Below are positions 5,034 to 35,909 of a DNA stretch of 44,464 bases, one piece after another; the stretch's first letter is position 1, and every line of letters starts with the position of its first letter. The position numbers and the translations under genes are program-made. This DNA is from a virus, in the UHGV virus genome UHGV-0192852; one strand, written 5' to 3'. Under the pieces are notes generated by a model. That model had not been told where the DNA came from and made no database searches. It saw only the letters and a program-made list of their open reading frames with translations.

Positions 5034-5049
5034 ATTGGAGAATACTACA

Positions 5050-5412
5050 ATGGCTAAAGCACCACTCTTTACACTTGACCCTAAGCCTACCTTTAAGCTG
5101 CCGATTGAGATCCCGCGCCCTGGTGAGAACGAACCAGGCAAAATGACGTTTACCGTACGCCACCGCCCGATCGACGAATTTTCGCAGACCATGCAGGACA
5201 CTGAGCGCAAGCTGTCGGAATACGACGACAACGACCCGGAAGGCTTTAACGTTATGGTCGAGGCCATCATGCACGTCGCTGAAGGCTGGAATCTGCCAGA
5301 TGAATTTAACGCGGAGAACGTCCGCCGCCTGGTGGTTAACTACCCTCGCGCGTTCGGTGTGTTCCACACGTCGTACTATCTCGAACTGATGGGTCTGCGT
5401 GAAAAAAACTAA
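5050..5412 (+). CDS. tail assembly chaperone (lambda gpG-like)
   Basis: 120-aa acidic protein between major tail and tape measure genes; GGAG RBS before ATG 5050 (in frame within track ORF 5035..5412); ends REKN*. Confidence 0.7.
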   Translation: MAKAPLFTLDPKPTFKLPIEIPRPGENEPGKMTFTVRHRPIDEFSQTMQDTERKLSEYDDNDPEGFNVMVEAIMHVAEGWNLPDEFNAENVRRLVVNYPRAFGVFHTSYYLELMGLREKN

Positions 5413-5726
5413 TTGAGGCGGCGCGACGCTTTTATGGCCCGCCGCCACCCTCCGAAGATTTAGCCGCAAGTTTATGGGGTGCGGCCCCCGAAGATGTTTG
5501 TCCGCCTGTTGCGCTATGGCCCGACAACGCGAAGGTAGTCGCCGTCTTCACGGATTGCTCCACGCAATGGCGCACCGGATTCGGCGGCGCATACGGCATC
5601 GACTACGGCGTACTGGAATGGCTATTTAAGATGCATGGCATCGAAAACGCACAACGTGCGTTTAAAGATATCAAGCTAATGGAACGCGTTGCGCTGGATG
5701 AAATGGCGCGGCAGAACCCCGCATAA
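5050..5726 (+). CDS. tail assembly chaperone G-T fusion made by programmed -1 ribosomal frameshift
   Basis: slippery heptamer A_AAA_AAC at 5403..5409 just before the G stop; the -1 frame is open with no ATG for 105 codons (LIEAARRFYGPPPPSEDL...DEMARQNPA) to TAA at 5724..5726. Confidence 0.6.
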
Positions 5727-5730
5727 CGAA

Positions 5731-5990
5731 GCGGGACAGGCGGGACGTCCCGTTTTGTCCCGCACCTCTAAAAACTGCATATTTACCCACCAACATTGCA
5801 TAAATTAAAAACGGGACAGGGGTGCTGTCCCGATCTGTCCCACCCCCAAATTGTGAATATCTATTCTGTTTTCGTGCATAAAACAAACGGGACAAAAAGC
5901 GGGACAGACAAGGGGCGGGACAAAGCGGGACAGCACCCTGTCCCTGCCAGTGCTGCCGCGGGGTTTAGCCGATCGGGACAGCGGGACAGC
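5731..5990. repeat. array of GCGGGACA(G) octamers in both orientations (copy A)
   Basis: about 14 copies of CGGGACA / TGTCCCG incl. palindromes CGGGACGTCCCG and GGGACAGGGGTGCTGTCCC; 5887..5945 nearly identical to 33738..33795. Confidence 0.8.
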
Positions 5991-5994
5991 ACCC

Positions 5995-6042
5995 CAGTCT
6001 TTCAGACTAGACGGGGGTCAATGGCCCCCTCGTCTGAGACTG
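5995..6042 (+). other. conserved 48-nt imperfect palindrome/hairpin (copy A)
   Basis: CAGTCTTTCAGACTAGACGGGGGTCAATGGCCCCCTCGTCTGAGACTG; outer CAGTCT/AGACTG, AGACG/CGTCT and GGGGG/CCCCC pairings; near-identical copy at 33846..33894. Confidence 0.75.
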
Positions 6043-6110
6043 AATAAGGTTTGTTTTAAATTCGCTGATACAATAACCGACGGCAACTGCATAAAAAGGG
6101 GGACTGCATA

Positions 6111-19952: not shown

Positions 19953-19974
19953 TGCAACCAACCTATTGGTTGCA
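19953..19974. promoter_or_regulatory. perfect 22-bp palindromic operator-like site
   Basis: TGCAACCAA-CCTA-TTGGTTGCA; on minus strand followed by CTATATT (-10-like) upstream of gene 19305..19898. Confidence 0.6.
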
Positions 19975-21460: not shown

Positions 21461-21494
21461 AATATAATGCAACCAATATGGTTATGCAACCAAT
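21461..21494 (-). promoter_or_regulatory. sigma70-like promoter with two TTGGTTGCAT motifs
   Basis: minus strand TTGGTTGCAT-AACCATA-TTGGTTGCAT-TATATTG, i.e. TTGCAT-N17-TATATT; 17-mer CAATATAATGCAACCAA shared with 140..156. Confidence 0.55.
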
Positions 21495-27946: not shown

Positions 27947-28003
27947 TTTCCAATTCCTCATTTTCACATGTATCGGGGTTATTGTGAGCCACCCCGTTCG
28001 GCT

Positions 28004-28026
28004 TGGTTGCTAATTTACTTGGTTGC
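28004..28026. promoter_or_regulatory. paired TTGGTTGC motifs upstream of SSB gene
   Basis: TTGGTTGC at 28004..28011 and 28019..28026 in intergenic region 27947..28036. Confidence 0.45.
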
Positions 28027-30994: not shown

Positions 30995-31324
30995 ATGAAT
31001 GTAAACGACGCAATCGAAATGTTAACTAAGACTGTTTGCAGTGAGACTAGCCGGTCCTGGGCGTATACCGATGCCGTGGGTGCGGTGCTATTTGAAATCG
31101 AACGACTGCGCAGTGTCGAAAAAGAATTACGCGCCAGGCTGGAATTGCTCAATGGCACGGCAGCAAGCAAGCTGCAAAAGCACAATGAAGAAATGGAAGA
31201 ATACAAAAAGCAGGTTATCCGTTTGCGCGCCGAGGGTAAATCCTGGGCGATGATTGCCGAGTTGACCGGAATTAATCAGAGCACAGTGCGCTCCTGGGTA
31301 CGCAATAATAAAACTTCTAAGTAA
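30995..31324 (+). CDS. HTH DNA-binding regulator
   Basis: C-terminal GKSWAMIAELTGINQSTVRSWVRN helix-turn-helix; first rightward gene of the control region, upstream of primase. Confidence 0.6.
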   Translation: MNVNDAIEMLTKTVCSETSRSWAYTDAVGAVLFEIERLRSVEKELRARLELLNGTAASKLQKHNEEMEEYKKQVIRLRAEGKSWAMIAELTGINQSTVRSWVRNNKTSK

Positions 31325-31334
31325 GGCCGCGGCA

Positions 31335-33599
31335 ATGAGCTTAATTAAATTCGCTGTAACACGACCCGCTAAAAAAGGCGAAAAAGCCAGGGCGGAAAAC
31401 TTCCAGATGACCACTGATGAATTTTTCGAATTTATCAAAGATGCGAAAGAGATATCGTCGGTGCATATCAATAAGACGGAAGATAAAGCCGAGTATGCAC
31501 GCCGCAAGCGTAAGGCCGATGGCATTGTGGCGTATACCAGTGACGGCTTACGTCGCAAGACCAGTGCGGTGGACCGCTCGATCCTGTTCTTCGATATTGA
31601 CCGTACTGACACCCGCACCCTACGCCGCTGCCGTAAGGCGTTCATCGACGCGGGACTGGAGCACGTCTTCCACACCACAACCGGCGACCGCCACCCGCTG
31701 AAAGGAGGCACGCGTTGCGCCCGTTTCCTGGTGTTAACTGACAAGCCTGTACCGGCGGAAGACCTGGGCCGCGCCCAGTATGCCTTGTTAGCCCAACTTG
31801 GTCTGTCCGATGTGGACTTCGATGATTGCACGAAAGACACAAACCGCCTTATGTACCTGCCCCACCAGCAATCGGTTATTAAGTGCCACTACGGCAAACG
31901 TGCCCGCATCCGTCGTCTGCTTCGCCTGGCTGATAAGCTGGGAGTGGAAAAAGAGGAAGTACGCCGCGAACTAACCCAGGGCGATGACGGCGTGGCGGAC
32001 GGCATTCTGGATTGGTGCTTCCAGGCAGGATTCGAACCGCTGTCGTCCGGTCGTGGTTATGAAGTGCCATGCCCGAACGAACATCTGCATAGTGGAGAAG
32101 GGTCCACCGCAATCATGGTTAAGGATGGCGAGATCCGTTTCAAGTGTATGCACACCGGCAACGAGTGTTGCTCGGAACTGAATAGACACCAGCACCTAGC
32201 GCTACGTCTTATCGGTATCCCTGACCACCTGAACGTCGAACCGCACAACATGTCACGTAAGCAGATCGCCGCCATCCTTCCGGGGCTTGACGACGAGGAG
32301 GTGGAATCGTGCTACGAACATATTGTTGATGCGGTTGGTGACGGCTACGAGTACGGCGAATGTACGGATGCAGACCTGGACAACGAGCCGGTCGCACTGT
32401 TCAGTAAGCACGACCCGATCATCGAAGGCCTGGTTAACTTTAAATCGACATGGTATCTCGCCGGTGAGTCGAACATCGGTAAGTCATTCTACGTGCTGGG
32501 CCAGATGGGCGCTGTTGCCGCGGGTATTCCTTTTGGCGGTGCGAAGGTCGTACAGTCTCATTGCTTCTATTTCGACGCGGAAGGTGGCGAAGCCTCCAAC
32601 CAGCGTAAGGAAGCATTGCAGATCAAATATGAGCACGACCTGGACAAGCTGCACATTATAGACCTGCAATCTCGCGGCTGGGATATCACCAGCAAATCAG
32701 GACTGCGTGAAGTTATCAGCTTCATCAACCGCACCGCTAACGGAGAACCGGTTGGCCTGGTGGCGTTCGACTCACTCAACCAGACTGTTGCGTTGCGGTC
32801 CGCCGATGCTAAACCGTTCGACGAGAACAACGCCAGCGATATGGGCGAAGTGGTCAAAGCGCTGAAGGCCATCGCGGAAAATACAGGCGGCAGCGCTGGC
32901 GTCATCCACCACCCGGCGAAAGGTGCAAACGGCAGCAGAACGCCACGCGGATCCGGCGCGCTTCATGGTGCTGTCGATTCCGCGTTCTTCCTGGAACAGC
33001 CGGACGACAACCAGCCAGGCCAACTCAACCTGTACCATGAGAAGTCACGTAACGGCATCAAGCAAGCGCCGCGTGGCTTCGTTCTGCTCAAGTGCAAAGT
33101 GAAGGTGGATCTACGCAAGTCCGAGGCGTTCGAAGCCCACCAGTCCACCAGCACCGGGCCAGACTTCGGTGATGTGGTTGCCGGTTGGGACGTCAAGCCG
33201 ATTGCATCCACGCCACGCGACGAGACTCTCTACCTCGTACCGGTCGCCCTGGCACCGTTCGCTATCGAACAGGCGAAGGCCGCGGGCAAAGCGGCAGTTA
33301 AGGAAGAGAACACCGCCGGACCGCGCACAGAAAAAGAGAAGGTGCTTTATGCGGCACTGGAAAAACTGATGGAAGATAACCCGGACCATACCGGATTCAG
33401 TAAGTCGGCAATTGTCCGCCAGGCCGGACTCGCGAAAGGTGGCACATCTACGAAGGCGATTGACGATATGGTTGAGCGCGGAGTGTTAGGTTTCTACACC
33501 GACCCGCACACCGGGGCCATCTATGGGTCGTCAAATATCGTCATCAAAACGAATATACCCATCACGCTTTCGGCGACCGACGACGACTTAAGAGATTAA
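31335..33599 (+). CDS. putative DNA primase / replicative helicase-ATPase fusion
   Basis: C-terminal RecA-like P-loop (AGESNIGKSF Walker A, VAFDSL Walker B-like); central Cys/His cluster (CPNEHLH...CMHTGNECC); 754 aa. Confidence 0.55.
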   Translation: MSLIKFAVTRPAKKGEKARAENFQMTTDEFFEFIKDAKEISSVHINKTEDKAEYARRKRKADGIVAYTSDGLRRKTSAVDRSILFFDIDRTDTRTLRRCRKAFIDAGLEHVFHTTTGDRHPLKGGTRCARFLVLTDKPVPAEDLGRAQYALLAQLGLSDVDFDDCTKDTNRLMYLPHQQSVIKCHYGKRARIRRLLRLADKLGVEKEEVRRELTQGDDGVADGILDWCFQAGFEPLSSGRGYEVPCPNEHLHSGEGSTAIMVKDGEIRFKCMHTGNECCSELNRHQHLALRLIGIPDHLNVEPHNMSRKQIAAILPGLDDEEVESCYEHIVDAVGDGYEYGECTDADLDNEPVALFSKHDPIIEGLVNFKSTWYLAGESNIGKSFYVLGQMGAVAAGIPFGGAKVVQSHCFYFDAEGGEASNQRKEALQIKYEHDLDKLHIIDLQSRGWDITSKSGLREVISFINRTANGEPVGLVAFDSLNQTVALRSADAKPFDENNASDMGEVVKALKAIAENTGGSAGVIHHPAKGANGSRTPRGSGALHGAVDSAFFLEQPDDNQPGQLNLYHEKSRNGIKQAPRGFVLLKCKVKVDLRKSEAFEAHQSTSTGPDFGDVVAGWDVKPIASTPRDETLYLVPVALAPFAIEQAKAAGKAAVKEENTAGPRTEKEKVLYAALEKLMEDNPDHTGFSKSAIVRQAGLAKGGTSTKAIDDMVERGVLGFYTDPHTGAIYGSSNIVIKTNIPITLSATDDDLRD

Positions 33600-33603
33600 A
33601 ATT

Positions 33604-33687
33604 TGCGCGCATTGGTTGCCATGTTGGTTAATTTCTGCGCGCATTGGTTGCCAAATTGCGTGTTTTTAGCTGGTAGTATTGGTTGCC
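33604..33687 (+). promoter_or_regulatory. direct repeats carrying three TTGGTTGCC motifs
   Basis: TGCGCGCATTGGTTGCCA at 33604..33621 repeated at 33636..33653; third TTGGTTGCC at 33679..33687. Confidence 0.6.
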
Positions 33688-33737
33688 GTTCGGTGTGATT
33701 ACTATGAATAGTTATGCAATAAAACTGCATAAACTAA

Positions 33738-33840
33738 GCGGGACAAAAAGCGGGACAGACCAGGGGCGGGACAAAGCGGGACAGCACCCCCGTCCCGCCC
33801 CGGATGACGCGGCCTGGCGGGGAGCGGGACAGGCGGGACA
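33738..33840. repeat. array of GCGGGACA(G) octamers (copy B)
   Basis: GCGGGACAAAAAGCGGGACAGACCAGGGGCGGGACAAAGCGGGACAGCACCC almost identical to 5887..5945; further copies to 33840. Confidence 0.8.
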
Positions 33841-33845
33841 ACTCC

Positions 33846-33894
33846 CAGTCTTTCAGACTAGACGGGGGTCAGTGGCCCCCCTCGTCTGAGACTG
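33846..33894 (+). other. conserved imperfect palindrome/hairpin (copy B)
   Basis: CAGTCTTTCAGACTAGACGGGGGTCAGTGGCCCCCCTCGTCTGAGACTG; two differences from copy A. Confidence 0.75.
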
Positions 33895-34054
33895 CATAAA
33901 ATCCGGGGATTGCAAAATACACGGCAGCATGTTGCGGATTGCGGTCGTCGACGAACCCGGCAACCAATGCGAGTTGCAGAATGGAGAGTGAAAAATGCAG
34001 TTTGCAGTTACAGCAGATAGCGATCAACTTTTTCATGCGCGTGATTAATATTGG

Positions 34055-34097
34055 TTGCATTCGTGCCAGCACCCTGCTAGATTGGTTGCACACCAAC
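34055..34097 (+). promoter_or_regulatory. sigma70-like promoter with conserved leader element
   Basis: TTGCAT-N17-TAGATT followed by GGTTGCACACCAAC and AGGAC RBS; same architecture as the minus-strand promoter at 170..141. Confidence 0.55.
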
Positions 34098-35569: not shown

Positions 35570-35857
35570 ATGTTACACGATGTGATTTATTGGTTTGGTT
35601 TGATCTGCGGGCTGTGCCTGCTTACCGCGGTGCTGTTGGGCCTCCTGATGTTCCTGATTTGGCCCGCGGTTGAAGCTGCCAGCATTACCCGCATGACGTT
35701 CCAGATATACAAGCGCCGTGGAATCACGGAGCACCCGACCAGGCTGCGCATGTGGTGGCTGTGGTATCGCGATATGATTGGGGGTCGGATGTTCGAGGCC
35801 GTCCGATCGAACGGATGGGAATGGAAAGGCGTCGGCAAGTGGTCCATTTTCGATTAA
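35570..35857 (+). CDS. small membrane protein
   Basis: ATG 35570 (MLHDVIYWFGLICGLCLLTAVLLGLLMFLIW) hydrophobic N-terminus; followed by terminator. Confidence 0.45.
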   Translation: MLHDVIYWFGLICGLCLLTAVLLGLLMFLIWPAVEAASITRMTFQIYKRRGITEHPTRLRMWWLWYRDMIGGRMFEAVRSNGWEWKGVGKWSIFD

Positions 35858-35874
35858 TTATGCAAGCGTGATAT

Positions 35875-35909
35875 AGTCCCAGTGAGATAAAACTTACTGG
35901 GACTTTTTT
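35875..35909 (+). terminator. rho-independent terminator
   Basis: perfect 9-bp stem AGTCCCAGT/ACTGGGACT, 12-nt loop, T6 run. Confidence 0.7.

Follow-up and report, generated by a model that had tools for sequence, protein, structure and literature searches.

The hairpin-forming palindrome at positions 5995–6042 of the virus genome UHGV-0192852 does not stand alone but forms the 3′ end of a module of ~190 nt that is present twice in the genome and consists, in order, of an AT-rich box, an array of CGGGACA repeats (iterons) and the hairpin. The stretch analysed, called the window throughout (44,464 nt), is essentially a complete genome of a Dhillonvirus, a virulent siphophage of Escherichia coli resembling HK578, SO-1 and SSL-2009a, and all 159 phage records matching the region belong to, or cluster with, Dhillonvirus at 80–95% identity. 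As the module carries most of the defining sequence features of origins used by self-loading initiator-helicases, it is probably a replication origin, or an origin-like binding array, for the phage helicase-primase. A DNA-level role for the hairpin at such an origin is indicated because it ends an iteron and AT-box module that co-varies with the predicted winged-helix domain of that protein; on balance we read the hairpin as the terminal structured element of a twice-occurring lytic replication-origin module. That it is a DNA structure aiding helicase loading or first priming, or bounding the replication bubble, is put forward more tentatively.

A duplicated module ending in a hairpin

The hairpin (CAGTCTTTCAGACTAGACGGGGGTCAATGGCCCCCTCGTCTGAGACTG, 48 nt, plus strand; hairpin copy 1, in ‘region A’) had been flagged in an earlier note on the window, together with a second copy at 33846–33894, and both sets of coordinates were borne out. 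In copy 2 (49 nt, plus strand; ‘region B’), the small palindrome AGTCT-TTC-AGACT is followed by a stem-loop rich in GC and then by a distal AGACTG, with which the long hairpin closes. The two copies differ, as had been reported, at two places: an A-to-G change in the loop and one extra C in copy 2. The long imperfect hairpin with nested stems was also recovered, although in a register slightly shifted from the stems first proposed; the best fold pairs CAGTC/GACTG, followed by a 2-nt bulge, TCAGAC/GTCTGA, an internal loop and GGGGGTC/GGCCCCC. As plus-strand RNA, the copies fold at −27.9 (copy 1) and −27.6 kcal/mol (copy 2), with z = −5.0 and −3.4 against dinucleotide shuffles, none of 200 of which folded as well; with DNA parameters, copy 1 gives −13.2 (z = −4.0) and copy 2 −13.3 kcal/mol (z = −3.2).

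Neither copy is a canonical intrinsic terminator, in agreement with the earlier note: the sequences 3′ of the hairpins are AATAAGG and CATAAAA, without a T-run, and consensus scans for sigma-70 promoters and terminators reported nothing at either hairpin. Rfam 15 covariance models at the gathering threshold had no match in the whole window. Both copies do lie 5′ of plus-strand genes, the tape-measure gene from 6111 and a conserved open reading frame (ORF) of 39 amino acids from 33996. What had been missed is the module to which each hairpin belongs.

This module was evident as a repeat (5854–5981 and 33705–33832, 75% identical) and from the distribution of CGGGACA, of which the window has 21 copies where 6.5 would be expected, 16 of them falling within two regions (5732–5988 and 33739–33840). 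Each module has six direct iterons and one inverted iteron, spaced by 12/16/10/48/8–9 nt in both copies, and a single palindrome; the two modules have the same orientation.

Region B begins ~100 nt past the stop codon (33599) of the helicase-primase gene (31335–33599, plus strand, 754 amino acids), the product of which is the putative iteron-binding initiator. The order here is a small helix-turn-helix (HTH) gene (30995–31324), the helicase-primase gene and then module B with its hairpin. The AT-rich box of region B, ATGAATAGTTATGCAATAAAACTGCATAAAC (33704–33734, plus strand), holds (G/C)TG(A/C)ATA twice, as direct repeats at a distance of 21 nt. It ranks third in AT content among all 35-mers of the genome (99.96th percentile) and is a candidate DNA-unwinding element. 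It is followed by the iteron array (33739–33840, plus strand), with CGGGACA at 33739, 33751, 33767, 33777, 33825 and 33834, and with an inverted copy at 33792 that pairs with the 33777 copy to give a small hairpin. The motif ACGGCAGCA (33921–33929, plus strand), 27 nt past hairpin B, marks the 3′ module edge in all lineages.

Region A occupies an unusual non-coding gap of ~385 nt between the tail-assembly chaperone (G/GT) and tape-measure genes. Its left iteron clusters (5731–5846, both strands) carry CGGGAC(A) at 5732, 5741 and 5812 on the plus strand and at 5747, 5757 and 5827 on the minus strand, with an extra degenerate inverted iteron around 5838. The AT-rich box TGTGAATATCTATTCTGTTTTCGTGCATAAAAC (5852–5884, plus strand; AT content at the 99.5th percentile) follows, and then the right iteron array (5888–5988, plus strand), with CGGGACA at 5888, 5900, 5916, 5926, 5974 and 5982 and an inverted GGGACAG at 5937–5943.

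Conservation and co-variation with the helicase-primase

Within Dhillonvirus, 23 copies of A and B were aligned, and about 35 distinct copies were found overall. The iterons, their spacing and both hairpin arms are invariant among them, while the apical loop has ~10 variants (TCAATGG, TCAGTGG, TCAGCGG, TCATCGG, TCTGGCA, GTCTGTCA, TATTGT and others). The spacer between iterons 4 and 5 drifts, with 1-nt insertions and deletions that argue against the small ORFs annotated across the module in some records; these ‘hypothetical proteins’ are probably spurious. Two exact copies of the 5′ half of the hairpin were present in 13 of 16 IMG/VR Dhillonvirus contigs, and at least one of the exceptions ends inside the repeat. 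In a lineage with an 83%-identical helicase-primase, region A is orthologous to that of the window and not copied from the lineage’s own region B, so the A/B duplication is older than the radiation of the genus and both copies have been kept. Pattern scans of metagenomes and IMG/VR detected the CGGGACA array with the module spacing only in Dhillonvirus-like contigs of ~42–45 kb and in one metagenome fragment of 2.5 kb, and searches of plasmids and E. coli genomes did not find the module.

Some public assemblies start or end in module A (NC_073077.1, Maverick; IMG/VR 3300045988_009799), and one record ends within the hairpin; the ~190-bp A/B repeat is probably the cause of these breaks. The GenBank record of Sodalis phage SO-1 (GQ502199) names the same two loci, the chaperone/tape-measure gap and the sequence after the helicase/primase gene, ‘region A’ and ‘region B’, and describes them, in an annotation note only, as mutually similar with direct, inverted and palindromic repeats. 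In the literature on the origins or repeats of Dhillonvirus, HK578, SO-1 and SSL-2009a, we found no analysis of these regions, no link to the C-terminal domain of the helicase-primase and no cross-lineage comparison.

Relatives beyond the genus were reached through the AT-box sequence GTGAATAGTTATGCA, which is kept across lineages with differing iterons, and through helicase-primase homologues; they are siphophages of 40–45 kb, including Cornellvirus VSiP, other Guernseyvirinae and further contigs. At least seven other lineages have the same layout 3′ of the helicase-primase stop codon. It opens with one or two iterons and an AT box in which GTGAATA occurs twice at a distance of 21 nt; three or four more iterons follow, an inverted pair among them, and beyond a spacer come two further iterons, a long GC-rich hairpin and ACGGCAGCA. 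The iteron itself is specific to the lineage, being CGGACAA, GGGGGAGA (the VSiP type), CCGACA, GGGATAA, GGGGATG or TTGCGAGT (Klebsiella phage VLCpiS11a).

The earlier note had suggested looking for the structure in homologous phages, and there it is indeed kept, as the same fold built from differing sequences. The design common to the lineages is a small palindrome (X-loop-X′), a GC-rich stem-loop and X′ again, often with an X-like segment ahead, so that the element can form either a single long hairpin or as many as three short ones. Counting pairs by position, we found that all seven lineages have, at one and the same position, a perfect small hairpin with a stem of 5 bp or more; five different stems are used (AGTCT, CTCCT, TCATC, TCCTC and TCTCC), and a perfect distal partner of 5–8 nt closes the long hairpin in six of the seven. 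This count was used in place of RNAalifold on a MAFFT alignment across lineages, as that alignment is non-structural and recovered no more than part of the small hairpin. All lineage versions fold well (z from −1.9 to −6.0), and the hairpins of Klebsiella phages show compensatory changes (ATGCTCAC/GTGAGCAT against GATCAC/GTGATC). The apical loop holds an inverted iteron in most lineages (TTGTCC, TGTCCG, TGTCGG or ATCCCC; TTGTCCCC in one Dhillonvirus-like lineage).

Two paralogous iteron and hairpin modules with TTGCGAGT repeats were also seen in Klebsiella phage VLCpiS11a, at 35684–35908 and 5036–5280, one of them 3′ of the helicase-primase gene and the other in the late region, between head-morphogenesis and spanin genes. 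As this second, late-region module differs in iteron and location from that of Dhillonvirus, the two-site design is recurrent. Six contigs of ~40 kb with helicase-primases 43–44% identical (L117–L120, L124 and L125) have no module after the gene, which is followed by a terminator and then by opposite-strand genes; their origin, if of the same kind, must lie elsewhere.

The helicase-primase has a helicase core of the AAA_25 family (RepA-like RecA fold; residues 357–531, Pfam), and the best-fitting Foldseek match by TM-score to its full-length AlphaFold2 model was RSF1010 RepA (1g8y; TM 0.64). The confidently folded first ~200 residues match phage primase PHROGs and contain invariant D87 and D89. 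A C-terminal domain of approximately residues 666–737 is predicted to be a winged helix. Pfam gave no match in the N-terminal 350 or the C-terminal 100 amino acids, and protein and profile searches of Protein Data Bank sequences gave only a marginal match, to RepA. The acidic tail of the protein (residues 748–754, 33576–33596) follows the pattern D-D/E-D-L-x-D, with D751 invariant and L752 nearly so in 39 homologues, and recalls the acidic C termini through which T7 gp4 or SSB is anchored to its partner proteins.

Across lineages, the iteron changes in step with the final ~100 residues of the helicase-primase. The proteins of contigs L127 and L129 are 98% identical over residues 1–664 and 47% identical in the C-terminal domain, and those of L116 and L122 are 95% identical elsewhere and 44% identical in that domain; the iterons differ within each pair. 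At the DNA level, L073 and VSiP are 85–95% identical along the gene but 40–60% identical over a stretch that starts ~370 nt ahead of the AT box and takes in the coding region of the C-terminal domain, the iterons and the hairpin; the AT box itself stays at ~80%, and identity is back to 83% just past the hairpin. The predicted recognition-helix segment and the iteron correspond one-to-one in eight classes. Natural mosaics were observed between L073/L122 and L027/L116 and between L127 and L129, with genes 95–98% identical outside a swapped cassette of C-terminal domain, iterons and hairpin; such mosaics indicate that origin specificity has been exchanged by recombination as a unit.

Two further readings were considered and set aside. 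The small HTH protein was rejected as the iteron binder, being 93% identical in L127 and L134 despite their differing iterons and hairpin stems. Nicking of the IS200/IS605 or HUH type, suggested by a ‘putative transposase’ label in the SO-1 record on the gene before the helicase-primase, was rejected because that gene encodes a 109-residue HTH protein (HTH_23/Sigma70_r4_2) and not a Y1/HUH enzyme.

The origin reading and its rivals

From the co-variation we infer that the helicase-primase would bind the iterons through its C-terminal winged-helix domain and oligomerise beside the AT box, the likely unwinding element. Upon opening of the duplex, the palindrome could fold back on its single strand and serve as a landmark for loading of the ring helicase or for the first primer, as may be compared with the ssi hairpins of RSF1010 and the stem-loop of pRN1; alternatively, the folded palindrome might restrict how far unwinding proceeds. 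The ancestral position would be that of region B, 3′ of the helicase-primase gene, and region A would be an old second copy that may act as a second origin or as a cis-acting enhancer. Paired sites of this kind are known from P4, in which ori and crr are two separate clusters of the same short repeat in one genome, and from the two-site oriL/oriR arrangement of SPP1.

The arrangement has precedents in studied replicons. The Rep proteins of Staphylococcus aureus pathogenicity islands (SaPIs) read iterons of 5–6 nt through a C-terminal winged-helix domain, and 6–12 iterons with an AT-rich centre lie directly downstream of rep (PMC9371898). The phage system resembles these in its predicted C-terminal winged helix, its short iterons of 5–8 nt 3′ of the initiator’s own gene, its AT-rich region and its lineage-by-lineage match of C-terminal domain and iteron. 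SaPI Reps, however, are MCM-like 3′→5′ helicases, whereas the phage protein is a RepA/superfamily 4-like RecA-fold helicase fused to a primase, and neither a terminal hairpin nor a second genomic copy has been described for the SaPI origin. In P4, the alpha protein binds origin repeats through a winged helix (PMC4234260); it combines primase, helicase and C-terminal winged-helix origin-binding domain in one polypeptide, as the phage protein is predicted to do. The oriV of the IncQ plasmid RSF1010 has iterons, an AT-rich segment, a GC-rich block and ssi hairpins for priming once RepA has opened the DNA (PMC4234260). Here the likeness extends to the iterons beside an AT-rich segment, the conserved hairpin of ~40 nt (ssiA/ssiB), the RepA-family helicase core and, as in an ssi hairpin, stems that are kept while the loop is free. 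By contrast, RSF1010 uses RepC, RepA and RepB′ as separate proteins whereas the phage has a single fused protein, and RSF1010 has two opposite-strand hairpins where the phage has one tripartite palindrome per module, for which priming is, by analogy, a candidate role. In pRN1, a stem-loop downstream of the primase-helicase gene is required for replication, and a small repressor gene precedes (PMC4234260). The pRN1 order (orf56/orf904) of small HTH gene, primase-helicase with C-terminal winged helix and large stem-loop directly downstream recurs in the phage, although pRN1 has no iterons, a superfamily 3 helicase and a stem-loop of ~100 nt rather than 48 nt. A similar stem-loop follows the replication gene of Bordetella phages BIP-1 and BPP-1.

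Several observations weigh against reading the modules as origins with a DNA-level hairpin. GC skew mirrors only gene orientation and transcription and gives no origin position. Iterons flank the AT box on both sides in region A and in Guernseyvirinae relatives, but those of Dhillonvirus region B, unlike those of SaPIs, lie only 3′ of it. Both hairpin copies of the window are without the inverted loop iteron, and the central palindrome, with arms of 5–7 bp and a loop of 3–7 nt, is too imperfect for ready cruciform extrusion from duplex DNA. Both modules head, and are co-oriented with, late-gene blocks, which would fit a transcriptional role too. The strand bias in hairpin stability, too, is small under DNA parameters; under RNA parameters, a result that bears on the RNA reading below, the minus-strand form is as stable as the plus-strand form, or more so, in eight of ten lineages, so that the mRNA-sense strand is not favoured.

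Of the candidates listed in the earlier note, a protein-recognition or DNA-structure element fits best, and its lean towards RNA processing or stability gained no specific support. A hairpin acting in plus-strand RNA, as an RNase III-type processing site, a stabiliser at the 3′ end of the helicase-primase or tail-chaperone mRNA upstream or, between operons, a weak terminator or attenuator, would account for the strong RNA fold (about 20 bp with internal loops), for the intergenic position of both copies, co-oriented with transcription, and for the TTATTCATT that follows the hairpin in Guernseyvirinae; moreover, there is no terminator between the helicase-primase stop codon and module B, so the module is probably transcribed. 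We nevertheless regard an RNA role as quite unlikely. Dhillonvirus has no U-run, the terminator and Rfam searches were empty, and the U-rich tail does not share the conservation of the hairpin. The strand comparison given above also speaks against it, the hairpin swaps along with the C-terminal-domain and iteron cassette, and the stems are invariant in sequence in ~35 copies while spacers drift, which is more than pairing alone demands. Control of late transcription, with a protein on the CGGGACA array (possibly the helicase-primase) activating or de-repressing the late blocks, so that late expression is coupled to replication, and the hairpin as attenuator, seems similarly improbable. It is consistent with both Dhillonvirus copies and both VLCpiS11a copies lying directly 5′ of, and co-oriented with, late-gene blocks, with an extended −10 element (TGATACAAT) 3′ of hairpin A and with a good Guernseyvirinae sigma-70 promoter, TTGCAA-17-TAATAT, ~110 nt past the hairpin. 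Yet the arrays lie 3′ of any promoter-like sequence in the box and at variable distances 5′ of real promoter candidates, none of which follows hairpin B; co-variation with the repeats was seen for one protein only, a replicative helicase-primase; and iterons, AT-rich box and adjacency to the helicase gene match origins (PMC9371898). The position of the modules at the heads of late blocks and the TGATACAAT after hairpin A do leave some room for a late-transcription link or an RNA-level role.

Little probability attaches, too, to a palindrome that works as duplex DNA and is never extruded, either offering the winged helix or some host protein additional palindromic sites or acting as a GC-rich clamp that limits origin melting. 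AGTCT-N3-AGACT resembles a dimer-binding site, the middle of the GC palindrome is occupied by an inverted iteron in most lineages, the arms are too short and interrupted for easy cruciform extrusion, and RSF1010 oriV also has a GC-rich block beside its iterons (PMC4234260); but the half-sites vary between lineages by fully compensatory, pairing-keeping changes, the signature of a folded strand, and the loops of the window itself lack an iteron. That the modules are packaging (pac) or recombination sites is hardly credible: motifs are repeated at two places and some assemblies begin or end in a module, but about 5 kb separates the modules from the terminase genes, it is the helicase-primase and not terminase with which the repeats co-vary, and the 190-bp repeat itself accounts for the assembly breaks. 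Two narrower readings were also discarded. A sigma-54 promoter in ACGGCAGCA...TTGC failed by inspection, the GG-to-GC spacing being inconsistent between lineages, and a CsrA sponge acting via GGA-containing repeats was dropped because the repeats are also inverted and co-vary with the DNA-binding domain. A reading of the AT box of region A as DnaA boxes (TGTGNATAA), which it matches at eight of nine positions at 5852 and 5873, gains no statistical support, as one-mismatch sites number 32 against 27 expected and region B has none.

An extension of the origin reading, which we consider unlikely, is that the fused primase, RepA-like helicase and winged-helix protein recognises the tripartite palindrome as a structure-specific signal for loading or priming, and that the two modules cooperate over 16–28 kb, either as origin and enhancer by DNA looping or as two origins that head the late-gene blocks and whose firing also switches on late transcription. 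If true, this would be a replication-coupled late switch operated by a single protein in a sigma-70-dependent siphophage.

Neighbouring features and significance

Several smaller features surround the modules. The inverted iteron pairs of region A at 5732–5752 (plus strand) and 5832–5812 (minus strand) form terminator-like hairpins followed by T-runs; the rightward one lies just past the chaperone gene, and the first cluster is annotated as a rho-independent terminator in the HK578 GenBank record. The extended −10 promoter-like TGATACAAT (6066–6074, plus strand) lies 24 nt past hairpin A, with 37 nt between it and the start codon of the tape-measure gene. It was read by eye from the sequence, as the consensus scan requires a −35 element and does not report it, and it is invariant in all region A copies examined, which suggests an internal promoter for the distal tail genes. 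Together, the paired terminator-like hairpins and the promoter after hairpin A may shield module A from transcription.

Around both modules there are repeated copies of the box motif (C/G)TG(A/C)ATAA (6039–6046, 33891–33898, 5797, 5875, 6088, 6105 and 33726), and each hairpin is directly abutted by one at its 3′ end; TGCATAA was counted 13 times where 6 were expected, with 7 of the 13 beside the arrays, and in Guernseyvirinae the box copy after the hairpin is inverted (TTATTCAT). The ACGGCAGCA motif is found ~25–45 nt past the hairpin in every lineage, whatever its iteron (L026, L027, L073, L121 and L134), with ACGGCAAC (6080–6087) as its counterpart in region A; a primer start, an element of the 5′ untranslated region and a promoter component are all conceivable.

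A second over-represented motif, TTGGTTGC/GCAACCAA (21 occurrences against 1.9 expected), is found mostly as intergenic pairs, at 135–156, 19954–19973, 21469–21493, 28003–28026, 30796, 33612–33686, 33960, 34051–34089, 34600 and 37148. Three direct copies of CGCGCATTGGTTGCCA lie between the helicase-primase stop codon and module B, and Guernseyvirinae have a similar AATGTTGGCTG beside the AT box and beside the downstream promoter. The TTGGTTGC/GCAACCAA motif probably serves another regulator as its operator, and the small HTH protein is a possible candidate. Upstream of region A, the tail-assembly chaperone gene has seven A’s (A AAA AAC, 5402–5412) before its stop codon (5410–5412), and the −1 frame (5409–5726) is open to 5726; from its sequence, this slippery run looks like a classic G/GT programmed frameshift, and in the HK578 record the second part of the frame is a separate gene.

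The Dhillonviruses and the Guernseyvirinae (Jersey-like and Cornell-like) are widely isolated phages of therapy and biocontrol. For these phages, the data are best explained by an origin module of a known general kind that had not previously been described in them. The analysis provides a candidate origin with coordinates, a candidate initiator domain, a table of recognition helices and iterons, and natural domain-swap pairs, and an origin module would explain the odd non-coding gap of ~385 bp between the chaperone and tape-measure genes. Annotators should treat small ‘hypothetical proteins’ over regions A and B, and assembly breaks at the repeat, with caution. The cassette of C-terminal domain and origin appears to be an exchangeable specificity module for engineering.

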